From positions 1 through 39,225 of the IMG/VR virus record IMGVR_UViG_2574180019_000004: a stretch of DNA of 39,225 nt; one strand, 5' to 3'. The stretch comes from a virus. Its lineage: Duplodnaviria; Heunggongvirae; Uroviricota; Caudoviricetes. The position numbers and the translations under genes were made by a program. Positions 208 through 14,631 of the stretch are shown one piece after another. The stretch's first letter is position 1, and every line of letters starts with the position of its first letter. The notes under the pieces were generated by a model that was not told where the DNA came from, did not search any database, and saw only the letters and a list, made by a program, of their open reading frames with translations.

Positions 208-1464
208 GTGCTTACCGATACAAAATTAAAAAACCTCAAGCCGCAGGACAAACTGTACAAGGTCTCCGATCGTGACGGGCTGTATGTAGCTGTGCTTACG
301 TCAGGCACGGTCTCGTTTCGCTATGACTACCGTATCAACGGTCGCCGCGAAACACTGGTAATCGGGCAGTATGGGCGTGACGGTATCAGCCTGGCAGAAG
401 CGCGAGAAGAACTGATTGCTGCAAAGAAGCTGCTTAAAGCAGGCCAGTCGCCGGCTGCGGCTAAACGTGACGGTATCAAAAAGATTCGTGGTGCCGAGAC
501 GTTTGCGGTACATACCGACAGTTATATGAAACACGTCATCCTGGCTGACAGTACCCGCGCAATGAAGCAGGCAGTGATCGACCGTGACATACTTCCTGTT
601 CTTGGCAACAAAATGATGGCTGAAATTACCACATCGATGGTTCGTGATTTGTGTGACCGGATTGTCGAACGCGGTGGTCGGGCAACAGCAGTGCAGGCCA
701 GGGAGATCATCAGCAGCGTATACCGTCACGCCAATGACCGTGGTCATGGTTTGTTTAATCCTGCGGCTGACATTAAACCTTCGTCTATCGCCATATTTAA
801 ACCACGAGAGCGAACACTGACACCAGAAGAAATTGGCCTGTTCTTCCGTACGCTGGATGCCATTGGTGCTATGGGCACTATGAAAATGGCTTTAAAGCTG
901 GTGCTTATCACTATGGTTCGTAAAGGCGAATTCACCAATGCAACGTGGGACGAAATAGATTTTAAAAAATGGACATGGACAATTCCTTCAGACCGCATGA
1001 AGGGAAGCCGGGCGCACGTTATTTACCTGCCTAAACAGGCACAGGATATATTGGTCGGGTTGCAGATGTGCGCTGGTGGAAGTGAATATCTGGTTCCTGG
1101 TCGTTACAACTTCCGGAAGCCATTATCTAATGCCGCTCTGAACTCTCTGATCGACAGAACGGTGAAAATAATAAATGAAGATGGTGAGCATATTCAGGAC
1201 TTCACCGTACATGATATGCGCCGTACAGCCAGTACGTTGTTGCATGAGGCTGGTTATCCTTCAGACTGGATTGAAAAGGCTCTGGCACATGAGCAGAAAG
1301 GTGTGCGCGCCGTATATAACAAAGCGGAATACGCCAGACAGCGCGCCTACATGTTGCAGCAGTGGGCCGATATGATTGATTCCTGGATTAACGGGGAGCA
1401 TACGGATCTGATTCCGTTCTCCCCGTCGAAGTTTGAGAGGTGGATGGAAGACAGTAATAAATAA
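208..1464 (+). CDS. int: Tyrosine-type site-specific integrase (P4-like family)
   Basis: 418-aa ORF adjacent to att repeat; GTG start at 208 preceded by GGGTGA; N-terminal arm-binding-like region and C-terminal HDMRRT / LAHE / Y-containing catalytic region typical of phage integrases. Confidence 0.9.
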   Translation: MLTDTKLKNLKPQDKLYKVSDRDGLYVAVLTSGTVSFRYDYRINGRRETLVIGQYGRDGISLAEAREELIAAKKLLKAGQSPAAAKRDGIKKIRGAETFAVHTDSYMKHVILADSTRAMKQAVIDRDILPVLGNKMMAEITTSMVRDLCDRIVERGGRATAVQAREIISSVYRHANDRGHGLFNPAADIKPSSIAIFKPRERTLTPEEIGLFFRTLDAIGAMGTMKMALKLVLITMVRKGEFTNATWDEIDFKKWTWTIPSDRMKGSRAHVIYLPKQAQDILVGLQMCAGGSEYLVPGRYNFRKPLSNAALNSLIDRTVKIINEDGEHIQDFTVHDMRRTASTLLHEAGYPSDWIEKALAHEQKGVRAVYNKAEYARQRAYMLQQWADMIDSWINGEHTDLIPFSPSKFERWMEDSNK

Positions 1465-2126: not shown

Positions 2127-2773
2127 GCTGCACGCTCCCGCCCCTGGTTGTCTATTGGTGACACCGGAGCATTGCTGAATGCATTTGTTAATCCGCCAAT
2201 ATCCAACGCGTATCCAGGGTGTAGTTGCACTGCCGGGTCTTCGCACTGATTACCCCAAACATCGAAGCCATGAGACGTCTGGCGGGCGAACAGTTCAATG
2301 CGAGAAACATCGCCTAACAATTGCACAAGTTTTTCACGAACGATATCTGGTTTTCTTGAGTGCTCAAGCCGCGGTGCGGTAAATGACTGAACGATCCCTG
2401 CATTAATGCGCGTAGGTAGTTTTCCCTTTACCGCAAACAGGCAATCTTCACTATTGGCGCGAGTCATGTGTCCCATACCCATAACCAGTTTATCTGGTTG
2501 TCGACTACCACATTTTATCCACGTGAAGCCCTTCATCGTCATCAGACGAAATCCCCAGGCTTCAACAACTTTTAGTGCTTCGAGTGGTTGTGTTGGCACC
2601 CACCACATGGCCAACAGACAGTTTTCAGCGGTCAAATCCCACACAGGAAGGCGGCAGATATCCAGCACACTCATAACTGGATATTTAAAACCGGCACCGC
2701 GATTACCATCTGCGGCTTTGTCCCGGTATACCCAGGGTGGATCTGCATAGATTAGTGTGTATTTCTTAGTCAT
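2123..2773 (-). CDS. DNA N6-adenine methyltransferase (MT-A70-like, orphan)
   Basis: DPPW catalytic motif near N-terminus ([16 protein letters not shown]); no adjacent restriction endonuclease ORF; translationally coupled to phosphatase gene. Confidence 0.85.
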
Positions 2774-3017
2774 AAACCACCCCACAACATCTTATGCCGC
2801 TATAGTCGCCACGGCGAAGGCCGTTACCTTTTGTGATACATTGGTCCCTGCGAACCGCGATCCTTGCACGTTCAACATCACCAGAAGCAACATCCATACA
2901 CTGAAGCCAAAGGTGAGCGGCAATGCGGAACTGCCCTTTTTTCTCTCTTTCAATCGCGCGTTTTTCGATCTCTATCGCCGCAGGAGTAACGGCGACAATC
3001 TTTGACGGACTGCGCAT
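2766..3017 (-). CDS. Hypothetical early protein (83 aa from ATG at 3017)
   Basis: ORF in leftward operon; AAGGT 5 nt upstream of ATG 3017; no recognisable motif; start uncertain. Confidence 0.4.
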   Translation of the reverse strand: MRSPSKIVAVTPAAIEIEKRAIEREKKGQFRIAAHLWLQCMDVASGDVERARIAVRRDQCITKGNGLRRGDYSGIRCCGVVYD

Positions 3018-3174
3018 TGAAACCTTATTCATGTGATATTTTTCAAGTCGGCTTAACTTTCTCACTTAATCCAACCCTCTCTGAAAATTAATGTCAGCAG
3101 ATAAAGCCATGCTGAAACAGAGGCCAGGAATAAGTACCATCCTGACCATTTGCTCCAGTGCCTTAGCAGCGCAC

Positions 3175-3472: not shown

Positions 3473-4354
3473 TTACATAGATGTTTCGTTTAATTCTTCC
3501 CGACGAACGCTGTAAACGTCGGTGGCTTTTGCCAGCAGTTCGTCATCATCTGAAAGTTTTTGTGCAATGTATTTGTAAGCCTTATCCAGTTCGGAGACAG
3601 TGCTGTAATTCATCGCTGCGCTGGTAAAGGCCATCAGCATTTCTTCTGGATCACGGCTATCCGCTTTACGCGTTTGCTCATCAGGCTTTTTCGCTGGTTT
3701 AGCGTTGATCAGACTGTTCATTCCCGCAGCAGTGGTCGTTTGCGGAGTAATGTCTCGCTCAACGCGCGGTGCCGTTTCCTGTAATTCGTCAGGGGTGTAA
3801 ACACCGAGAAGTACATCAGGAGCGTGCAGTCGAGCCCATCGTTTCGTGCAAAGATAGGCAAGTTGCTGGCGCGGATCCTGTTCCCACAATGGAGAGTTAC
3901 GCACTCCGGCTTGCGCCATACTGATGGTAAGCTCACGGGGTTCTGCTTCTCCTTTAAGAACCGCTGACACAGTTACCGTCAGATTCGGTGATTTATCTGT
4001 TTTGCCGTTAACATTCGACCAGTCACCGCTCCAGCGATAATTCAGGCGTGTCGCTAGCAGGCTGGAAGAGGATACGACCGCGTTTACCAACTGTGCTTCG
4101 TAGCCTAACGTTCCGTTTACCACATGCGTTTTTTGCGCCACGGCGAAAGGGTTCATTCCCCACTGTGCCGCCTGCATGGTCACCGCCAGACAATCGGCAG
4201 GTTTGCCTTCAAGATGTTTCGGTACAGTCGCTTTGCTTTGTGACATCAACTCCGCGAAACGCACCAGTTGATTCATGCCCTCCGGGCTGAAGATTGCCGC
4301 AGCAGTACCTACAGTTGCGCCTGGTTGTGATGTGATTGCGATATCATTGCTCAT
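3473..4354 (-). CDS. recT: RecT-family single-strand annealing recombinase
   Basis: 293-aa protein with RecT-like core (AQWGMNPF... region); ATGA overlap with upstream exonuclease gene, the classical exo-recT pair. Confidence 0.85.
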   Translation of the reverse strand: MSNDIAITSQPGATVGTAAAIFSPEGMNQLVRFAELMSQSKATVPKHLEGKPADCLAVTMQAAQWGMNPFAVAQKTHVVNGTLGYEAQLVNAVVSSSSLLATRLNYRWSGDWSNVNGKTDKSPNLTVTVSAVLKGEAEPRELTISMAQAGVRNSPLWEQDPRQQLAYLCTKRWARLHAPDVLLGVYTPDELQETAPRVERDITPQTTTAAGMNSLINAKPAKKPDEQTRKADSRDPEEMLMAFTSAAMNYSTVSELDKAYKYIAQKLSDDDELLAKATDVYSVRREELNETSM

Positions 4355-5172
4355 ACGTACATATCCTGTTTACGTGCCCAGTCAGGGCGTTTAATAATTT
4401 CCACTCCGCCCCACTCATCGTTGATGCGGCATTCGTGATAGGTATTCAGATCCCGGCGGAACAGAGCGTGCCCGGCATCGACATCCGGCGCATCCAGCTC
4501 GAACACGCGTACCGGATACCGACCACAATCAATGCTTTCGCTCACGGCAAGAAAGAAAAAACCATGCGGCTGACCAGTAACCTTCATTGCGCCTTCGCGG
4601 TACATTGCGTCCTGCACGTGGTAGCGGAATTCCTCGATGTGGCGTGCAAAACGGTCCATATCTGCAACCTTTTTCACGTCGACGATCACGTTGTGCTCGT
4701 TCAGCCATTTGTCTGGACGAATGCGGCACAACTCACCAGTCTCTTCATCGTTCCAGTACATTGATGCTTCGTAGCAACCAGGTGCTTCCAGCATCCAGCG
4801 TGCCGCCGGGTGAGCCATTGCGCTATCACGCATCAGCTCCAGTTTCCGCCACTGCTCGGCATCAAGTACCGCAATCCCCATATCCGCTACATCACGAAGA
4901 AATGCTTCTTCGTCAGCTTTACCTTGTTTCGTCCGACGATCGAACTTTGGTGAAACAATGAAGCGTTTGTCGAATTCTCCAGGTTCCAGAAGCAGACAGT
5001 GCAATGCAGTTCCCATATCTAGTGCAGACTTTTTCTCTTCGTCTTCTGGTGCTGACTGAACCCATTTAAGAAGCGCCGGATTCTTGGCAACCATGTCCAG
5101 TTGCGACTTACTCACGCCGTCACCGGCGTGGTAGTCTTCGTTGCTGATGTCGAAATAAATTCCCGGTTTCAT
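4351..5172 (-). CDS. Recombination exonuclease (RecE / exonuclease VIII-like PD-(D/E)XK nuclease)
   Basis: 273-aa ORF immediately upstream of and translationally coupled to recT; sequence resembles prophage exodeoxyribonuclease VIII C-terminal domains. Confidence 0.75.
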   Translation of the reverse strand: MKPGIYFDISNEDYHAGDGVSKSQLDMVAKNPALLKWVQSAPEDEEKKSALDMGTALHCLLLEPGEFDKRFIVSPKFDRRTKQGKADEEAFLRDVADMGIAVLDAEQWRKLELMRDSAMAHPAARWMLEAPGCYEASMYWNDEETGELCRIRPDKWLNEHNVIVDVKKVADMDRFARHIEEFRYHVQDAMYREGAMKVTGQPHGFFFLAVSESIDCGRYPVRVFELDAPDVDAGHALFRRDLNTYHECRINDEWGGVEIIKRPDWARKQDMYV

Positions 5173-7112: not shown

Positions 7113-7928
7113 ATGAGCAGACATGCAACAGATTGGGCCTGGGAGACAGATCCAGGTAGCTCGTCATTAAAGCTCATACTGCTCTCGATGGCTGACAGAG
7201 CCGATGAATATAACCTCTGCTACCCCAGCATAGAACGCCTCGTTAAAGACACTTGCCTGAATAAAAAAACCGTGCAGGCCGGGCTTATATCGCTCATGAA
7301 AATGGGGCTTATTTCAGATACCGGAGAGAGAAAGGGAGCGACGAAAAGAGTGCGGGTTTTCTCTCTTAATATAACCAAAAACGGGAACATTAAAGGCAAC
7401 CGGGAAGGGAGCAATGAACCCGAAAACGGTAATGTTACCGAAAACGGGAATATACCCAAAAACGGGATGTTGAATGATCCCAAAAACGGGATGTTGAATG
7501 ATCCCAAAAACGGGATCCAGAACCAGTCATATAACCAGTCATTTAACCAAGAGAGGGAGAGCAGGACAAAAAGCGGGGATTCTGTGCCTCATGACCCCGG
7601 CGCAAACAACGCCGTGATGAATAACTTTGTTCCTCCTGGTGGGCCAGGGCAATTAGGCAAATTTGTCATGCATGAACAATGGCAGCCATCAGATGACTTT
7701 CTTCGGAAAAGCTCCTTGCAGGGGATCTACCTGGACAGTCTGCCAACGGCACAGGAACTTGCAGAGTTCAGAATTTACTGGATGGCTGAGGGTAAGGCAT
7801 ACCATCAGGCACAGTGGGAGCAGAAGCTGGCAAGGCGGCTGCAGATTAGCAGACAGAAGCAATCAACATTACCTGATAACAACGTTCCGCACTGGAACAG
7901 CCCTGAAGCGTGGGAGGATTTCTTGTGA
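7113..7928 (+). CDS. Replication initiator (lambda O-like) containing internal iterons
   Basis: N-terminal winged-helix-like region (LKLILLSMADRADEY...TVQAGLISLMKMGLI); internal ENGN/KNGM repeats encoded by DNA iterons; followed by P-like gene with GTGA overlap. Confidence 0.65.
   Translation: MSRHATDWAWETDPGSSSLKLILLSMADRADEYNLCYPSIERLVKDTCLNKKTVQAGLISLMKMGLISDTGERKGATKRVRVFSLNITKNGNIKGNREGSNEPENGNVTENGNIPKNGMLNDPKNGMLNDPKNGIQNQSYNQSFNQERESRTKSGDSVPHDPGANNAVMNNFVPPGGPGQLGKFVMHEQWQPSDDFLRKSSLQGIYLDSLPTAQELAEFRIYWMAEGKAYHQAQWEQKLARRLQISRQKQSTLPDNNVPHWNSPEAWEDFL
7374..7517. repeat. Iteron array (candidate origin of replication) inside O-like gene
   Basis: Six copies of CCnAAAACGG(G/T)AA at 7374, 7419, 7438, 7455, 7479, 7503, including perfect 24-bp tandem cccaaaaacgggatgttgaatgat x2; followed by direct repeat aaccagtcat(a/t)taacc. 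Confidence 0.7.
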
Positions 7929-8710
7929 ACAACGTTTTTACCGCGATACAAAACCGTGACGGAGAAGCCCTTTCTCGCATGTCAGGTTATGAGCATCAGT
8001 ACGTCAACAATGACAATGTGGTGAACATGTCAGCAGAGAGGCTTGTTGATGCCCTTTTCAAACAGCTGAAACAACTGTTTCCGGCGGCAGTGGTAACCAA
8101 CCTGAAGACGCCAGAGCAGGAAGTTGCTGCAAAACAGCAGTGGATTGCTGCGTTTGCCGAAGGGGGAATACGTACCCGTGAACAGGTTTCTGCTGGTATG
8201 CGCCACGCCCGCGCCAGTGAATCTCCGTTCTGGCCGTCGCCAGGGCAATTCATCAAGTGGTGTAAAGACAGCAAGATGGTTCTTGGCGTCACCATTGACG
8301 ATGTGATGGCGGAGTTTCACCGGTACAGCAAGGAAAAAAGTTTATATCCTGGTGGTCCCGAAAGATTCCCGTGGCGGCATCCGGTTATGTACTGGGTCGT
8401 ATGTGATACACGCCGTGCAATGTATCAGCGCCAGCTTAGCGAGATTGAGGTTGAGAAACACGCGCGCAGGCTGCTCGATGATTGGGCGAAAAAGGTGGCT
8501 TCCGGACAGCAGATACCCGATCCGGTGATCAGCATACAGGCAAAGCCAGAGCCCATGAGTACACCTCCGGACACAGGGAGAGACGTTTACCATCCACCAG
8601 GGCGAAGTTTCGGGTGCATGCCTAACGCCGCCACCCTTGGGGGAATAACACCGGCGCAGTGGCTGATGGAGGAATACAGGCGGGGAAAGGCGGCAGGATT
8701 TATCAAGTAA
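7925..8710 (+). CDS. Replication protein P-like (DnaB helicase loader)
   Basis: Matches remembered lambda P segments (SPFWPSPGQFIKWCKD vs lambda RPFLPSPGQFVAWCRE; MRHARAS vs MRVARRQ); GTG start 7925 after GGGAGGA. Confidence 0.85.
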   Translation: MNNVFTAIQNRDGEALSRMSGYEHQYVNNDNVVNMSAERLVDALFKQLKQLFPAAVVTNLKTPEQEVAAKQQWIAAFAEGGIRTREQVSAGMRHARASESPFWPSPGQFIKWCKDSKMVLGVTIDDVMAEFHRYSKEKSLYPGGPERFPWRHPVMYWVVCDTRRAMYQRQLSEIEVEKHARRLLDDWAKKVASGQQIPDPVISIQAKPEPMSTPPDTGRDVYHPPGRSFGCMPNAATLGGITPAQWLMEEYRRGKAAGFIK

Positions 8711-8747
8711 TACCAGCGCGATAGCGCATTTTTTTACGCCTCAATAA

Positions 8748-8824
8748 TTACCTATGAGGTAACAAAATATTCTAAGCTCTATTGATTTTGTGTCTTATGT
8801 GGTTTTTAATTACCTTAGAGGTAA
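8748..8824. promoter_or_regulatory. Two perfect operator palindromes upstream of accessory/late operon
   Basis: TTACCtatgaGGTAA 8748-8762 and TTACCttagaGGTAA 8810-8824 (second overlaps RBS of gene at 8828); ATGTGGTT motif at 8797. Confidence 0.6.
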
Positions 8825-8827
8825 ATC

Positions 8828-9172
8828 ATGAGAAAACAGATACAGGCTCTTGGTCGACTCAAAACAGGCCAGATGAACAAAACAGAATCTGCGTATTGCC
8901 AGCACCTTGAGCAGCGTAAACGTGCAGGGGAAATCGTCTGGTATCGATTTGAGGGTATCAAGCTGCGGTTAGCTGACAACACGTTCTATACGCCCGATTT
9001 TGCTGTGATGCTCGCCACCGGCGAGATGGAACTGCACGAAGTGAAAGGTTTCTGGACCGACGACGCCAGGGTGAAAACCAAAGTCGCCGCAGATCAGTAT
9101 CCGTTCCGAATCATCGGGGTAACGGTTAAACCAAAGAAAGCAGGTGGTGGCTGGAACATCGAAGAGTTCTGA
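8828..9172 (+). CDS. DUF1064-like protein, possible PD-(D/E)XK-type nuclease
   Basis: 114 aa; D...E-x-K pattern (YTPDFAV ... ELHEVKG); identification from memory of family, not verified. Confidence 0.5.
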   Translation: MRKQIQALGRLKTGQMNKTESAYCQHLEQRKRAGEIVWYRFEGIKLRLADNTFYTPDFAVMLATGEMELHEVKGFWTDDARVKTKVAADQYPFRIIGVTVKPKKAGGGWNIEEF

Positions 9173-9233
9173 ATCGACGATCTTTTTAGTTATCAATGTA
9201 ATCAATAAGTTATGTGGATAAGCGAGGGTAAAG

Positions 9234-9749
9234 ATGGAAAGTAATATCAAAGGGTTAGTTGCCGCCGGGCATGAGATGGCTTCGGAACTGAAAGCAGAAT
9301 GTGGTGCCGTTGATATGCGCAGTGTGGCAAAGCTGATCAGCGATTTGGCAACGCAACTGGAAGTGCAACTGGTGCGTGCTAATGCGATGGCCGAAGACCA
9401 GCAGAAAGCGATTGAGTCAATTAAGCAGGCTGATGCAGCTGTTAAGTTGGCACACGAGAAGTTTTCGGCGCTGGCAGCAGAGAATGCGGAGCTTAAACAG
9501 TCGGAGAAGGAATTTAATAACTTCTGTCGTCAGGAGTACTACGGTTGGGAGGACAACTTCACGGAAACCCCAGCCACCGACGCTTTCCTGGCTGAAGTAC
9601 GGGCGCAGGCGTTTAATGACCTTTGCTCGGTGTTCGTTAAGCACGCGTCGGTGTCCGGGCTGGACGATGGCGACTGCGTTACGGTGAAAGAGGCGACTGA
9701 CGCCCTGCTGCATTGTGCGGAACAGCTTCACGAGGGAGTGCATTCATGA
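9234..9749 (+). CDS. Hypothetical phage protein (coiled-coil rich)
   Basis: 171-aa ORF with RBS AGGGTAAAG; no motif recognised. Confidence 0.55.
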   Translation: MESNIKGLVAAGHEMASELKAECGAVDMRSVAKLISDLATQLEVQLVRANAMAEDQQKAIESIKQADAAVKLAHEKFSALAAENAELKQSEKEFNNFCRQEYYGWEDNFTETPATDAFLAEVRAQAFNDLCSVFVKHASVSGLDDGDCVTVKEATDALLHCAEQLHEGVHS

Positions 9750-9979
9750 GCAACCTACTACCATGTCCATTCTGTGGCGGCGCAGCGCACGTTGCCAGCG
9801 AAGCAGATCACCCTGAATATGGCTCTGGCGGTCGATTCTATTTCGTTCGATGCGGTACGTGTCGCGCTCAATCTGGTAGCAAATATGCAGCGCCTGGAAA
9901 TGACTGCGCGATTTTTTATTCAGAGGTTAGAGCAGAGTGGAATCAGCGAGCAAAGGAGGCAACCAGTGAGCGAAATTAA
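9746..9979 (+). CDS. lar: Lar-family restriction alleviation protein
   Basis: N-terminal MSNLLPCPFCGG motif and second Cys pair (CGTC), WNQR near C-terminus, as in Rac RalR/Lar; RBS GAGGGAG. Confidence 0.75.
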   Translation: MSNLLPCPFCGGAAHVASEADHPEYGSGGRFYFVRCGTCRAQSGSKYAAPGNDCAIFYSEVRAEWNQRAKEATSERN

Positions 9980-10382
9980 TTACCAGGCACTGCGTGAGGC
10001 GGCGGAAGCAATAAAAGTCGTGGCAGCGCCGCAAAAATTGCTTGCCTTTCGCATGAAGGTCACGCCGCAGGTTGTGCTGGCCCTGCTGGATGAACGGGAA
10101 AGAAACCAGCAATACATCAAACGCCGCGACCAGGAGAACGAGGAGATTGCGCTAACGGTAGGGAAGCTGCGTGTTGAGCTTGAAGCAGAAAAACAGCGGG
10201 CAAAAGTTCTATTTATGGAAAATGCTCGGCTTAAGTCAGGCATAGCCGGTCTGATACACCTCGGTATTCGATATGCAGATGTTGAGGTCATGAAAATTGC
10301 TGGAGATGCCCAGCTTTCTACCCCATGCACTGACAGCATCATAAACAGCATTGCAACAGGCATTCGCATCAAAGGAGAGTGA
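9966..10382 (+). CDS. Hypothetical protein (Ea22-like, coiled coil)
   Basis: GTG start after strong RBS GGAGG; begins VSEINYQALREAAEA; overlaps lar 3' end. Confidence 0.5.
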   Translation: MSEINYQALREAAEAIKVVAAPQKLLAFRMKVTPQVVLALLDERERNQQYIKRRDQENEEIALTVGKLRVELEAEKQRAKVLFMENARLKSGIAGLIHLGIRYADVEVMKIAGDAQLSTPCTDSIINSIATGIRIKGE

Positions 10383-10383
10383 T

Positions 10384-10965
10384 ATGAGCGCTATAACCAA
10401 AGAACGTATCAAATTATTCATTAAAAATCCGCTTGATAACGGACTTACTCGTGGCGAACAAATGGAACTGGCACGAATTGCACTGGCATCACTGGGAGCA
10501 GAACCTGTAAGCCAAACTTACAACTTGCCAGAATTAATCGAAGGCATGGAGGTTTCCATTGATGTAAGCACTTGTGATGCGGATTTAGGTAATCGCTATT
10601 TCGGTACCGTCACCGAGGCGTTAGAACTTGATACTGCCAAGAATGGTTACATCCTCCTGGTTCAGGACGCAGAGCCAAACTTCGATATAAATGGCAACTC
10701 TCCGGTAACTCCGGATGGTTGGGTTATAGTGCCGAAGAAACTAACCGCTGAGAACGGCGCTAAGGGTGTGCTATCCGGTGAATTTTCAGAAACGACGTTT
10801 ATAAGCTGCCCGGAATGTTTTGGCGATGATGATTGCGATACCTGTGACGGTAGCGGGCGGATTGAAATTAAAGTACCAGTCACGTGGACGACCATAAAAT
10901 CCATCTGGGATAAAGGTATTGCGTATTTTGCAGCAGAACCGAGGCAGGAGGTTAACCGTGGCTAA
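10384..10965 (+). CDS. DUF551-like protein with C-terminal zinc ribbon
   Basis: NGNSPVTPDGW motif; CPECFGDDDCDTCDGSGR zinc ribbon; shares DNA modules with next gene. Confidence 0.6.
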   Translation: MSAITKERIKLFIKNPLDNGLTRGEQMELARIALASLGAEPVSQTYNLPELIEGMEVSIDVSTCDADLGNRYFGTVTEALELDTAKNGYILLVQDAEPNFDINGNSPVTPDGWVIVPKKLTAENGAKGVLSGEFSETTFISCPECFGDDDCDTCDGSGRIEIKVPVTWTTIKSIWDKGIAYFAAEPRQEVNRG

Positions 10966-11575
10966 CCTGCAACTTGCCGTCAAAGGTGAATACTTCGATG
11001 CCATGCTTCAGGGTAGCCAACCTGTAAGCCAAACTTACAAGTTGCCAGTTAATACACCTTGCCAAGATGCGCCAGCCCATATCTGGCTGCAAACAGCTGG
11101 AGTATGGCCAGAAGATGGCGAGTTAAGCGAATTAACGTGGTGCAGCCACAATCAGCACCATGATGACACGCTATATGTTCGAGCTGACTTGGTAAATGGC
11201 AACTCTCCGGTAACTCCGGATGGTTTATCCACGGTATGCGCTGAGGCTTATCAGGTTGTAGGAGTTATGGCAGATGCGCTTGGTGTATTCGGTGATGCAG
11301 CAGTACAGAAAGTTCTGGATAACCTGTCACAGCAAAAACTTGTTCACAGAGATGTGCTGCCGTTCTCGCGTCCGGTAACTCCGGATGGTTGGATAAGCTG
11401 TAGTGAGCGAATGCCCCCTCAAGATGATTGGATTTTAATTTATTCAAAGCACGGCGAGTATATGGCAGGACAGGTACAAGGGGAATACGTGGAGTTGAGC
11501 GACGGCACTTTATCGTGGTTAGGGAACGCCTTGTTCTGGATGCCGCTACCAGAACCGCCGCAGGAGGCGAAATGA
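10958..11575 (+). CDS. DUF551 domain protein (mosaic paralog)
   Basis: GTG start after AGGAGG; NGNSPVTPDG and RPVTPDGWISCSERMPP motifs; N-terminal 16 aa nearly identical to the ASCH-like gene at 11832. Confidence 0.6.
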   Translation: MANLQLAVKGEYFDAMLQGSQPVSQTYKLPVNTPCQDAPAHIWLQTAGVWPEDGELSELTWCSHNQHHDDTLYVRADLVNGNSPVTPDGLSTVCAEAYQVVGVMADALGVFGDAAVQKVLDNLSQQKLVHRDVLPFSRPVTPDGWISCSERMPPQDDWILIYSKHGEYMAGQVQGEYVELSDGTLSWLGNALFWMPLPEPPQEAK

Positions 11576-11832
11576 TGGATGTAAAAGAGAAGGTTTTGCA
11601 GGTGATGCGTTCCCGGGCTGCCCTGCAAGATAAAGCTCTCGGCGGGGAATATCCATTCAGGATGGCAACCTGGAATCTGCGGTTGGCAATGGAGAAGGAA
11701 TTTCCTGATGAAGAATGGCGTTCGGCAGATTTGCGCAAAATTCTTATGGAGCTGGCTAAAGACGGAACAGTATCCAAAGATACCCATGCCAGCCGGATTG
11801 GTCAGGCGGTATGGAGACTGGAGGTGAGGTAA
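11572..11832 (+). CDS. Hypothetical protein (86 aa)
   Basis: ATGA overlap with upstream stop; AGGAGG RBS. Confidence 0.5.
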   Translation: MMDVKEKVLQVMRSRAALQDKALGGEYPFRMATWNLRLAMEKEFPDEEWRSADLRKILMELAKDGTVSKDTHASRIGQAVWRLEVR

Positions 11833-12113
11833 TGGCTAACCTGCAACTTGCCGTTAAAGGTGAATACTTCGATGCCATGATTCGAGGGGAGAAAACGGAA
11901 GAGTATCGCCTGTGTAATGACTACTGGAATAAGCGCCTCGTTAACCGTAAGTATGACCGCCTGATTATCACAAAGGGATATCCGAAGCGCGAAGACTTCA
12001 GTCGCAGAATTGACGTCCCGTATAACGGATATGAAATAAAAACAATCACACATCCACACTTCGGTGATAAACCGGTAAAGGTGTTCGCGATAAAGGTAAA
12101 TATTGATGGCTAA
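11832..12113 (+). CDS. ASCH/PUA-like small protein
   Basis: 93 aa MANLQLAVKGEYFDAMIRGEKTEEYRL...; fold assignment from memory, unverified. Confidence 0.45.
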   Translation: MANLQLAVKGEYFDAMIRGEKTEEYRLCNDYWNKRLVNRKYDRLIITKGYPKREDFSRRIDVPYNGYEIKTITHPHFGDKPVKVFAIKVNIDG

Positions 12114-12444
12114 ATCAGCAGCAGAGCGCAAAGCCGCTCAGAGAGCCAGACAAGCTGCATCTGGTGTGCGTAAGCTGGAGATTGTGCTTGATGCTCAGGA
12201 AATTGAAATGCTGGAGCGTAACTGTGCCACACGTCGCCCCGGGCGTGCGCCTTACGAATTTGGTGAGTATATAGCGTTACTGATCCGCCAGGATGATGCA
12301 CGCGTGCGCGGGCATATAAAATCGATCAGCAGAAAACGTTGCGGTAAGTGCGGCGAGAGAGTTCCAGTTAATTCATGCCCGTGTAATGGTGACTCGCAAT
12401 GCTGGGTGACTAAAGGCTGGCATGAAACGAAATTAATAGTGTGA
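12106..12444 (+). CDS. Zinc-finger protein, candidate late-gene regulator
   Basis: C-terminal CGKCGERVPVNSCPCNGDSQC; last gene before terminator/operator/terS; stop codon lies inside GTGACATGTCAC palindrome. Confidence 0.5.
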   Translation: MAKSAAERKAAQRARQAASGVRKLEIVLDAQEIEMLERNCATRRPGRAPYEFGEYIALLIRQDDARVRGHIKSISRKRCGKCGERVPVNSCPCNGDSQCWVTKGWHETKLIV

Positions 12445-12452
12445 CATGTCAC
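12441..12452. repeat. Palindrome GTGACATGTCAC (copy 1 of 3)
   Basis: Exact 12-bp palindrome; terminator hairpin follows at 12494. Confidence 0.6.
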
Positions 12453-12493
12453 GAGTAGATTATGCATGATGAATTTGATGTGTTTTGAATACT

Positions 12494-12519
12494 GCCGCCA
12501 ACTATGGCGGCTTTATTTT
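12494..12519 (+). terminator. Rho-independent terminator upstream of terS
   Basis: gccgcc-aactat-ggcggc followed by tttatttt. Confidence 0.6.
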
Positions 12520-12530
12520 GCATGTTACTA

Positions 12531-12563
12531 TTACCACAACGGTAACTATTACCACGGTGGTTA
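12531..12563. promoter_or_regulatory. Operator palindromes immediately upstream of terS
   Basis: Perfect TTACCacaacGGTAA 12531-12545 and imperfect TTACCacggtGGTtA 12549-12563. Confidence 0.55.
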
Positions 12564-12565
12564 TG

Positions 12566-13159
12566 ATGCCTGCTGAACCTAAAACCTATAAACGCAAATC
12601 AACGCAATTTAAGCCACTAACAGCAATGCAGGAGGCTTATTGCCAGTCATACATCAAAACGCCTGAAAACCAGACTCAGGCAGCGATTAACGCAGGATTC
12701 TCCCCAAATACAGCGGCAGTTAAAGCCAGTGTCATGATGCGCGATGAACGCATTCAAAAACGGATTGCCGAGTTGATGGAGGAGCGCAACAAACGAATGC
12801 GCGTCAGTGCTGATTACGTTCTCATGCGCCTGGTGGAGATCGACCAGATGGACGTGATCGACATCCTCAACGACGATGGGAGCCTTAAACCAATCCGTGA
12901 GTGGCCGAAAATCTGGCGCACTACGCTTAGTGGCTTTGATCTGTCATCGACCATCATGAACATGAACGAGGATTCGATAGAGACAATCCTCAAAAAAATT
13001 AAATGGCCTGACAAGGTGAAGAACCTTGAGCTGATTGGTAAGCATGTTGATGTCAACGCGTTCAAAGAACGTCTGGATGTTAATGTGAATGTGACAATTG
13101 CTGATCGCATAGCAGCAGCCAGGAAGAGACTGAAAGAACGTCAGGATGGCAATAAGTGA
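12566..13159 (+). CDS. terS: Terminase small subunit
   Basis: Conserved TerS-like region AYCQSYIKTPENQTQAAINAGFSPNTAAVKASVMMRD; directly upstream of and overlapping terL; N-terminal part of the tracked ORF treated as non-coding. Confidence 0.8.
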   Translation: MPAEPKTYKRKSTQFKPLTAMQEAYCQSYIKTPENQTQAAINAGFSPNTAAVKASVMMRDERIQKRIAELMEERNKRMRVSADYVLMRLVEIDQMDVIDILNDDGSLKPIREWPKIWRTTLSGFDLSSTIMNMNEDSIETILKKIKWPDKVKNLELIGKHVDVNAFKERLDVNVNVTIADRIAAARKRLKERQDGNK

Positions 13160-14631
13160 CAGATACAGCGTTATCTCCTGAAGATCAGTTAATCGAGGAT
13201 ATTGCAGGGTTCACTCACGATCCGCTTGGCTATGCCCTCTATGCGTTCCCGTGGGGGGAAGAGGGTACTGAACTGGCACATGCCACCGGTCCACGTCAGT
13301 GGCAGGCCGATGCGTTCCGAGAGATACGTGATCACCTGCAGAATCCAGAGACGCGCTATCAGCCGCTTATGCTGGCACGCGCTTCTGGTCACGGTATTGG
13401 TAAATCCGCATTCATCTCAATGCTGATCAACTGGGGCATGTCCACTTGCGAGGATTGTAAGGTCGTGGTGACCGCCAACACCGACAACCAGCTACGAACG
13501 AAGACCTGGCCGGAAATTATCAAGTGGTCGAACCTTGCTATCACGAAAGAGTGGTTTACCTGTACCGCTACCGCGATGTACAGCAATGACCCTGGGCACG
13601 ACAAGCGGTGGCGAGCTGACGCAATCCCCTGGTCTGAGCACAACACTGAGGCATTCGCCGGACTACACAACGAGCGAAAACGCATCATCGTGGTATTCGA
13701 TGAAGCGTCGAACATTGCGGATCTGGTGTGGGAAGTTGCTGAGGGTGCGCTTACGGACGAAGACACTGAGATTATCTGGGTGGCGTTCGGAAACCCTACA
13801 CGTAACACCGGACGTTTCCGCGAATGTTTCCGCAAATATAAACACCGCTGGAAAACTGCGCAGATTGACAGCCGAACGGTGGAAGGCACTAACAAACAGC
13901 AGTTGCAGAAATGGGTTGATGACTACGGGGAAGACAGCGACTTCGTTAAAATCCGTGTGCGCGGCATATTCCCTGATGCATCTGAATTGCAGTTTATCCC
14001 TACCGGTCTTACTGATGAGGCAATGAAACGGGTGGTAACCGCTGCGCAGGTGGCGCATGCTCCGGTGATAATCGGTGTTGACCCGGCATATTCAGGCGTT
14101 GATGACGCGGTGATATACCTGCGGCAGGGGCTACACAGTAAGGTGCTGTGGACTGGCAACAAGACTACCGACGATCTGATTATGGCGAAGCGTATCGCTG
14201 ACTTTGAAGACCAGTATCAGGCTGACGCGGTGTTCATCGACTTCGGTTACGGAACCGGTCTGAAGTCAATCGGTGACGGATGGGGTCGTACATGGCAACT
14301 TGTTCCGTTCGGTGGCGCGTCTACTGACCCGCAGATGCTCAACAAGCGTGGGGAGATGTTCAATTCATGCAAGACATGGCTGAGGCTGGGCGGCATGCTG
14401 GATGACCAGGAAACAGCAGACGACCTGTCGGCGGCAGAGTACAAAGTTCGAGTGGATGGTAAAATCGTTATCGAACCGAAGGAAGATATCAAGGAGCGGA
14501 TTGGGCGTTCGCCGGGTAAAGGCGATGCGCTACTGCTGACGTTTGCGTTCCCTGTGTCTAAGCGTCTGCAAATTCCCGGGCAGCAGAACCAGCAAGGCAA
14601 GGCCATCACAGATTACGATCCCTATGCTTAA
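13156..14631 (+). CDS. terL: Terminase large subunit
   Basis: Walker A-like ASGHGIGKSAF and Walker B-like IIVVFDEAS; GTGA overlap with terS stop. Confidence 0.85.
   Translation: MTDTALSPEDQLIEDIAGFTHDPLGYALYAFPWGEEGTELAHATGPRQWQADAFREIRDHLQNPETRYQPLMLARASGHGIGKSAFISMLINWGMSTCEDCKVVVTANTDNQLRTKTWPEIIKWSNLAITKEWFTCTATAMYSNDPGHDKRWRADAIPWSEHNTEAFAGLHNERKRIIVVFDEASNIADLVWEVAEGALTDEDTEIIWVAFGNPTRNTGRFRECFRKYKHRWKTAQIDSRTVEGTNKQQLQKWVDDYGEDSDFVKIRVRGIFPDASELQFIPTGLTDEAMKRVVTAAQVAHAPVIIGVDPAYSGVDDAVIYLRQGLHSKVLWTGNKTTDDLIMAKRIADFEDQYQADAVFIDFGYGTGLKSIGDGWGRTWQLVPFGGASTDPQMLNKRGEMFNSCKTWLRLGGMLDDQETADDLSAAEYKVRVDGKIVIEPKEDIKERIGRSPGKGDALLLTFAFPVSKRLQIPGQQNQQGKAITDYDPYA

Follow-up and report, generated by a model that had tools for sequence, protein, structure and literature searches.

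Why do neighbouring genes in the accessory region of a temperate phage carry short blocks of nearly identical DNA? The question is raised by a 39,225-nt stretch of viral DNA (IMG/VR record IMGVR_UViG_2574180019_000004; "the window" below is this whole stretch), which is a phiV10/epsilon15-like (Uetakevirus) temperate phage or prophage of E. coli type. Two adjacent open reading frames (ORFs), ORF-A and ORF-B, the latter ending in a DUF551 domain, share such blocks with one another, and the start of ORF-B shares one with an ASCH-like gene downstream. We consider it likely, at a probability of about 0.8, that the blocks reflect exchange of protein modules at population level, by homologous recombination at patches of 30–51 nt, together with occasional illegitimate joints.

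Three repeat families (D1, D2 and D3) are present, all of them direct, in the same reading frame and in plus-strand genes. D1 is identical at 33/33 positions between 10688-10720 and 11193-11225, and a third copy of its 17-mer core (CCGGTAACTCCGGATGG) lies at 11372-11388. D2 matches at 29/30 positions (10502-10531 and 11019-11048), including an exact 20-mer at 10504 and 11021, and D3 at 49/51 (10959-11009 and 11833-11883). An earlier sequence-only reading of this DNA had described all three, and its figure of 46/48 for D3 (10958-11005 and 11832-11879) is exact; its 29-bp repeat (D2) and its repeat encoding NGNSPVTPDG (D1, third copy included) are also real, with second copies that need moving, from 11010 to 11020 for D2 (where acctgtaagcc begins) and from 11205 to about 11195 for D1. 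Dinucleotide-preserving shuffles of the window give an expectation of 0 matches to the D1, D2 and D3 patterns, and no further copies occur elsewhere in the 39-kb window.

The positions of D1 and D2 follow the architecture of the two proteins. ORF-A (193 aa) has the order N1–L1–M1–L2–C1, its C-terminal module C1 being zinc-ribbon-like (CxxC...CxxC), and ORF-B (205 aa) consists of 16 aa of ASCH N-terminus followed by L1–M2–L2–M3–L2'–DUF551. Linker L1 has the form PVSQTY(K/N)LP, preceded by ..AE/SQ-, and linker L2 the form (G)N(S/Y)PVTPDGW, with ISCSERMP next in DUF551 proteins. In ORF-A they read EPVSQTYNLP and NGNSPVTPDGW, and in ORF-B QPVSQTYKLP, NGNSPVTPDGL and, for L2', PVTPDGW. Repeats D2 (L1) and D1 (L2) are two or three copies of universal inter-module linkers in adjacent genes. 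Both linkers are intragenic, read in frame inside ORF-A and ORF-B, and only the accessory blocks 9950-10007, 10353-10390 and 11536-11580 sit at gene junctions. The map below gives the blocks and modules, with the starts and ends of high-scoring segment pairs (HSPs) in related loci; SD denotes a Shine-Dalgarno sequence.

10353-10390, plus strand: gene-boundary block (end of the Ead/Ea22-like gene, SD, ORF-A start); 85 HSP starts and 72 ends, 227 loci
10384-10965, plus strand: ORF-A
10502-10531, plus strand: linker L1 copy a (EPVSQTYNLP; D2); breakpoints of PAS61, TL-2011b, L006 and others
10532-10687, plus strand: module M1 (ELIEGMEVSIDVST...AEPNFDI); 94-97% in PAS61, TL-2011b and E. coli 85.0412
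10688-10722, plus strand: linker L2 copy a (INGNSPVTPDGW; D1); 182 HSP ends at 10719-10726
10723-10946, plus strand: module C1 (ORF-A C-terminal); found in only 11 related loci
10947-11009, plus strand: boundary block kept from a C1-ASCH arrangement of phiV10 type (ORF-A end, SD GGAGG, GTG, first 17 ASCH codons); left copy of D3
10958-11575, plus strand: ORF-B, GTG start, DUF551 C-terminus
10999-11005, plus strand: crossover microhomology TGCCATG, joining the ASCH start in frame to a DUF551-family gene
11019-11048, plus strand: linker L1 copy b (QPVSQTYKLP; D2)
11049-11192, plus strand: module M2 (VNTPCQDAPAHIWLQ...LYVRADLV); 97-98% in prophages L005, L007, L008, L230 and L231
11193-11225, plus strand: linker L2 copy b (VNGNSPVTPDGL; D1); 181 HSP ends at 11221-11228
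11226-11369, plus strand: module M3 (STVCAEAYQVVGV...HRDVLPFSR), an optional cassette flanked by L2 copies; missing from L005, L007 and L008
11370-11415, plus strand: linker L2 copy c and conserved DUF551 start (PVTPDGWISCSERMP); 191 HSP starts at 11371-11372, 170 ends at 11415-11418
11416-11535, plus strand: DUF551 variable core; many alternative cores after the same linker
11536-11580, plus strand: gene-boundary block (WMPLPEPPQEAK, stop, SD, next-gene start); 117 HSP starts at 11536-11537
11572-11832, plus strand: eaa-like gene, 86 aa (PHROG 2814)
11832-12113, plus strand: ASCH-like gene, intact, 93 aa; its first 51 nt are the right copy of D3

Breakpoints in related loci fall on these blocks. 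Eleven loci were retrieved by general homology and aligned to the window, and their breakpoints coincide with the conserved blocks. PAS61 (the nearest phage record to the window), TL-2011b and the E. coli 85.0412 prophage follow M1 to window position 10722 and continue at 11371, M1 being fused at L2 directly to DUF551, and in the P1-like RCS47 an identity of 99% sets in exactly at 11371 and runs to 12115. In prophages AR_0085, N25 and JML285, M2 (10996/11000-11225) is joined to 11371 without M3, and prophages J6 and 09A19CPO009 carry 10996-11415 (L1-M2-L2-M3-L2') at 98.3% inside genes of ~330 aa. Among 5,426 complete E. coli genomes, 308 contain M3, in many cases within DUF550 (dATP/dGTP pyrophosphohydrolase)-DUF551 proteins. 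Across the 227 loci, the ends of HSPs are concentrated at 10353-10390, 10461-10538, 10688-10726, 10947-11053, 11192-11228, 11371-11418 and 11536-11580, the last including 122 ends at 11559-11580 (58 at 11559-11571 and 64 at 11576-11580), and the stretches between these places have low coverage and are common to few loci. As a whole the arrangement is rare: 80% or more of its 2.2 kb was found in one place in 0/50,697 phage records and 0/5,426 complete E. coli genomes.

Sequences on either side of a linker also occur in reticulate combinations among loci. The L2 17-mer is carried by at least 119 IMG/VR contigs, with 121 sites having full flanks, and these flanks were clustered at 85% identity. 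With 150-nt flanks, 47 left and 32 right clusters occur in 82 combinations, which include 15 four-gamete rectangles (121 sites); matched 75-nt flanks give 37 × 32 clusters in 78 combinations, of which 41 are in excess, with 35 rectangles. When the split was placed inside a module as a control, there were 0 excess combinations and 0 rectangles for the left module, and 1 excess combination and 0 rectangles for the DUF551 core. Linker L1 behaves as L2 does (26 × 20 clusters, 55 combinations, 16 rectangles).

The conserved unit extends beyond the linker peptide. Codons near the L2 17-mer are almost fixed (GGC 55/57, AAC 63/65, TCT 54/54, ATA 64/68, AGC 62/62, TGT 64/64, AGT 60/67, GAG 57/59, CGA 58/66) and remain so across 82 distinct flank combinations, until the following Pro codon, which varies freely, and the sequences diverge. 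Conservation therefore applies to a DNA block of some 50 nt and not just to the peptide motif that it encodes.

Taken at face value, the exact 17-mer is a poor marker outside its own setting. A taxonomic scan of 596 Gb of genomes, one per species, returned 76 matches where roughly 70 are expected by chance on our own estimate, and only 9 of the 76 lie in the true context (in Kluyvera, Citrobacter, Escherichia species and two probably mis-binned contigs); exact-17-mer counts are hence uninformative outside enterobacterial phages. Two short contigs of a metagenome-assembled genome labelled 'Segatella copri' (Bacteroidota; L245 and L250) carry the enterobacterial-phage linker/DUF551 context, which is probably binning contamination.

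ORF-A and ORF-B are members of a very large superfamily of enterobacterial-phage proteins (PHROG 60, with the Ead/Ea22, DUF550 and DUF551 proteins) that are built as strings of independent modules split by linkers L1 and L2. The linkers and gene-boundary blocks are conserved in nucleotide sequence over 30-50 nt, with unrelated alternatives as the modules between them, and we propose that they act as homology patches for module exchange between co-resident phages and prophages. Such exchange may be carried out by single-strand-annealing recombinases of the phages or by host RecA, and each exchange would be in frame and fall between folding units, so that its products are viable. The window encodes a single-strand-annealing recombination pair of its own, a RecT-family protein and an exonuclease (3473-5172, minus strand). 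Efficient pairing needs a segment of at least 23-27 bp with Red-beta and 31-34 bp with RecA (PMC3945230), and at 30-51 nt the blocks are at or above these lengths. Experiments have shown that Rad52-like phage recombinases, RecT included, drive the formation of mosaics where homology is short or diverged (PMC3945230, PMC2327257). The sequence-only reading had suggested ongoing domain shuffling by short-homology recombination, and for the D1 and D2 linkers this stands at the level of the population, with breakpoints on the blocks and reticulation across linkers and not inside modules; it does not extend to D3, which is treated below as a single illegitimate scar.

Several points weigh against this population-level exchange. 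All of the inference is comparative and no recombination event was directly observed. The loci behind the large counts were picked by an exact linker match, which guarantees the identity of the linker, although it guarantees neither the reticulation of the flanks nor the conservation of neighbouring codons. Among 20 loci with two L2 copies, copies within a locus differ by 3.75 mismatches and copies between loci by 3.27 (p=0.93). An AlphaFold2 model of ORF-B (43-sequence alignment) is confident for DUF551 only, a small beta-barrel with a pLDDT (predicted local distance difference test) of 80-90, while M2, M3 and the linkers stay below 50, hence disordered L1/L2 hinges between autonomous M1-M3 folds are not confirmed. 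Finally, selection for viable in-frame fusions could concentrate the surviving junctions at linkers even if breaks were random.

The comparison of copies within loci also bears on what happens inside a single genome. Copies in one locus are no more alike than copies across loci, so intragenomic gene conversion between linker copies is unsupported, and so is "ongoing" exchange within this genome. Since 17% of between-locus L2 pairs are identical, the perfect identity of the window's two L2 copies is consistent with the commonest allele having been drawn twice.

Repeat D3 has a different origin from the linkers. When the window is aligned three ways, with phiV10 and with prophages L005-L008, both parents of the joint can be identified: parent A reads ...TTCGATGCCATGATTCG, parent B ...CACGCTGCCATGCTTCAGGG and the window ...TTCGATGCCATGCTTCAGGG. 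In the arrangement of phiV10/L225 type, ...GAATACTTCGATGCCATGATTCG..., the end of ORF-A is followed by the ASCH start; this empty-site arrangement, with a C1-type gene directly followed by ASCH, occurs in IMG/VR loci L225 and L157 and in phiV10, and the window block 10947-11009 is 98.4% identical to the phiV10 p53/ASCH junction. DUF551-family genes read ...CACGCTGCCATGCTTCAGGGTAGCCAACCTGTAAGCC... where the window reads ...GAATACTTCGATGCCATGCTTCAGGGTAGCC..., and the switch lies within TGCCATG (10999-11005), in frame and with 12/14 matches over CGxTGCCATGxTTC. Identifiable parents on both sides, and a switch within a few shared bases without extended homology, are the marks of an illegitimate joint.

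The products of the joint can be read in ORF-B itself, which keeps the ASCH Shine-Dalgarno sequence and GTG start, the GTG overlapping the ORF-A stop codon, and which resembles the ASCH protein over its first 16 residues only. A 329-aa protein (P0001) is 95% identical over 98% of ORF-B and has ~145 extra N-terminal residues. ORF-B has at least 6,355 homologues, and 0 of the 120 that match best begin with the ASCH peptide; the 28-mer spanning the junction is absent from IMG/VR. Within the window, 874 bp (11010-11883) are bracketed by D3 as a 51-bp direct repeat.

The event is best read as a crossover at TGCCATG that joined ASCH codon 16, in the C1-ASCH arrangement of phiV10/L225, to the linker region of a ~330-aa DUF551 gene. 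The DUF551 donor would have had the arrangement DUF551-eaa-ASCH, as in the AR_0085 and J6 prophages, with a second crossover in homologous ASCH-regulator-terminase DNA downstream, and the exchange would have replaced the ~145-aa N-terminus of the ~330-aa DUF551 protein with 16 ASCH-derived residues. Such a crossover explains why ORF-B takes its ribosome-binding site, its GTG start and its first 16 residues from the ASCH gene and does without the family's usual N-terminal modules. On this alignment, ORF-B is a lineage-specific chimera and D3 the scar of a single illegitimate microhomology crossover, not a shuffling hinge.

The ASCH name is carried over from annotation. The Pfam profile (PF04266) scores 14.8 bits in 11832-12113 against a cut-off of 21.2 bits (E=0.048) and is below threshold, and the label rests on RefSeq proteins of 95-99% identity named 'ASCH domain-containing protein'. 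Another shortened ASCH start (VANLQLAVKGEYFADSFPQIWGK...*), fused to unrelated sequence, was found in L016 (IMG/VR) and one further locus, so remnants of the ASCH 5' end recur as scars in this region.

The alternative that survives best holds that the linkers are kept for their peptide only, the joints being random illegitimate recombination filtered by selection and the nucleotide identity incidental. The D3 junction, in the same region, is demonstrably illegitimate, and illegitimate recombination is the favoured general model where boundary sequence is absent (PMC3029335). Most of the variation in L2 affects second codon positions and is non-synonymous, which shows that the peptide tolerates change. 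Against this, synonymous sites, including those of the rare codons ATA and CGA, are near-invariant over about 50 nt despite unrelated flanks, and filtered random joints would give heterogeneous junctions rather than a shared block with sharp edges at 11371 and 11415. We regard this explanation as unlikely.

A more ambitious possibility is that the linker blocks are selected 'recombination adaptors' rather than passive remnants, nucleotide-constrained palindromes possibly with a dedicated enzyme to recognise them. If true, they would give enterobacterial temperate phages a standing combinatorial cassette system, by which effector modules such as DUF551 cores, M1-M3 and DUF550 could be re-assorted rapidly in an arms race against hosts; we think it very doubtful. 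In a related form, the blocks would be DNA or RNA signals, either small palindromes for a site- or structure-specific enzyme promoting exchange or regulatory hairpins. L2 does contain TCCGG-N5-CCGGA and L1 TGTAAG-N5-CTTACA, the stems are less variable than the loops in an unbiased sample of variants, and third codon positions are unusually conserved. However, no compensatory changes or covariation were seen, fold z-scores were unremarkable in 4/5 contexts, there was no Rfam match and no candidate enzyme was identified; moreover, a 9-nt tandem unit (SPV/TPD) that includes the self-complementary CCGG is enough by itself to produce the L2 palindrome. A signal of this kind is highly improbable.

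The palindromes themselves can be located precisely. That of L2, TCCGG-TAACT-CCGGA, lies at 10697-10717, 11202-11222 and 11367-11387, and that of L1, TGTAAG-CCAAA-CTTACA, at 10506-10522 and 11023-11039. The 9-nt tandem unit of L2 reads CTCCGGTAA / CTCCGGATG, encoding SPV / TPD. Variation in L2 falls at second codon positions, and third positions are almost fixed.

True paralogy, by tandem duplication within the genome followed by divergence, with the repeats as best-kept remnants, was implied when the sequence-only reading called these genes mosaic paralogs. The genes are indeed adjacent and co-oriented, share the order L1 then L2 and both belong to PHROG 60, ORF-A with E=5.7e-44, a profile of 461 positions without assigned function. 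Yet BLASTP similarity between ORF-A and ORF-B is limited to the linkers, which are 97-100% identical with unalignable sequence between them, a pattern incompatible with uniform divergence. Furthermore, M1, C1, M2, M3 and the DUF551 core are each 93-99% identical to relatives in other phages, in other combinations. The term paralogs was thus an overstatement, and a duplication origin is scarcely credible.

That the repeats are assembly or collapse artefacts, as could be asked of a window that is an entire draft contig (AYNF01000024.1, 39,225 bp), can be dismissed, since window 7958-14575 (6,618 bp), which spans the region, recurs at 100% identity in a separately assembled 5.2-Mb chromosome (OZ039185.1), and the exact ORF-B protein is present on 5 contigs, including the window's own. 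Nor do the repeats look like those of a dedicated variation system: 9500-13000 has no significant inverted repeats of the kind used by a shufflon or invertase, all repeat copies being direct and read on the coding strand, and differences of 0-2 nt among the D1-D3 copies lack the A-specific pattern of a diversity-generating retroelement, for which a reverse transcriptase was not specifically searched for.

Population-level exchange at short blocks therefore remains our preferred reading, and the surrounding genes give its setting. ORF-A and ORF-B belong to a tightly packed plus-strand operon directly upstream of the terminase genes, and the other features are:

208-1464, plus strand: integrase
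1467-2246, 2123-2785 and 2766-3065, minus strand: early-left operon ORFs besides RecT and the exonuclease
3473-4354, minus strand: RecT-family annealing protein (Pfam RecT, E=1.3e-31)
4351-5172, minus strand: PDDEXK/DUF3799 exonuclease (Pfam DUF3799, E=4.1e-22)
7910-8710, plus strand: lambda-P-like replication protein
9746-9979, plus strand: Lar-like gene (zinc-ribbon)
9966-10382, plus strand: Ead/Ea22-like gene
12106-12444, plus strand: regulator gene
from 12485, plus strand: terminase small subunit
from 13156, plus strand: terminase large subunit

The early-left operon also codes for an MT-A70 DNA methyltransferase, a calcineurin-like phosphoesterase and a PerC-like activator. The mechanically called ORF 9774-10382 is too long, and the Ead/Ea22-like gene really begins at the GTG at 9966, after AAGGAGG; the island 9950-10007 is a further gene-boundary block, common to many relatives. 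A weak rseX-like Rfam match at 12433-12518 (29 bits against a gathering score of 50 bits, E=0.64) overlaps a GC-rich hairpin and T-run after the regulator gene, where phiV10 has an annotated rho-independent terminator, and is most likely due to chance.

Database searches gave few clues to what the proteins do. ORF-A has no Pfam match, and DUF551 (PF04448) matches ORF-B at 41.2 bits against a 22-bit cut-off (E=3.2e-10, aa 144-202, full profile 1-68). ORF-B is likewise a member of PHROG 60. NCBIfam returned 0 matches for all five proteins, sequence searches of the PDB with ORF-A and ORF-B had no match, and the DUF551 model gave weak Foldseek matches in the PDB to SH3-like barrels (Hfq/Tudor; E about 0.1). 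By analogy with Ea22, ORF-A and ORF-B are probably dispensable factors that interact with the host or modulate lysogeny.

The mosaic structure evidently defeats homology-based gene calling. RefSeq annotation (Prokaryotic Genome Annotation Pipeline, PGAP) labels the long mosaic DUF551 genes as 'incomplete' pseudogene fragments (L231 863-1885 of E. coli J6, L230 and L007), and in the J6 gene the frame is open from MTTITKE... to the stop despite that label. A 281-aa DUF551 protein (P0083) is labelled 'Valyl-tRNA synthetase' by its source, an evident misannotation. Module exchange would account for pseudogene calls on open frames, for one PHROG that lumps unrelated modules and for the inconsistent use of the family names 'Ea22', 'EaA' and 'DUF551'.

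The closest known parallel is with lambdoid phages, for which a modular theory was reportedly advanced by Susskind and Botstein, and the analysis of HK620 by Clark et al. in 2001 is said to have described short conserved boundary sequences between modules. That such sequences serve as foci of homologous recombination is an old proposal (cited in PMC3029335). As in those phages, blocks of tens of nucleotides are here conserved between phages with unrelated flanking genes and the joints coincide with them, within an early accessory ('ea'/nin-like) operon of temperate enterobacterial phages, and the blocks at 9950-10007, 10353-10390 and 11536-11580 lie at gene boundaries, as in the classical description. 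The blocks are conserved in nucleotide sequence and junctions fall on them and not on the control positions, whereas L1 and L2 do not lie at gene boundaries; they are intragenic in-frame linkers, so protein modules are assorted rather than genes.

Other systems share part of this picture. The window resembles those in which Rad52-like recombinases act with relaxed stringency (PMC3945230, PMC2327257) in having RecT and an exonuclease and blocks of 30-51 nt that match minimal pairing segments, although those studies measured exchange over hundreds of bp of diverged homology, and activity at the 30-50-nt blocks would be an extrapolation. Ea22 of lambda and Stx phages is a block-wise mosaic in which DUF551 is a 'portable domain' appended to different N-terminal parts (PMC10834534). 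It belongs to the same superfamily and genomic neighbourhood, but that paper treats protein-level blocks in a few variants, and the nucleotide-conserved linkers, the breakpoints and the ASCH::DUF551 start are not in it. A survey of domain shuffling in phage proteins, which highlights receptor-binding proteins, endolysins and polymerases (PMC10684548), likewise reports recent high-identity sharing of fragments between otherwise unrelated proteins, but did not single out accessory PHROG 60-type proteins without assigned function. We found no paper on these particular linkers in the literature.

Set beside these systems, the locus is a clear and well-resolved but essentially ordinary example of known phage mosaicism, with no new mechanism or function. 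Specific to it are the intragenic in-frame hinges, a concentration of breakpoints shown with a control, and the new chimeric ASCH::DUF551 start. It is an unusually clean and quantifiable natural case of intragenic module exchange at defined 30-50-nt homology patches, with a built-in negative control, since modules show no internal reticulation, and with an illegitimate joint only a few hundred bases off for contrast.

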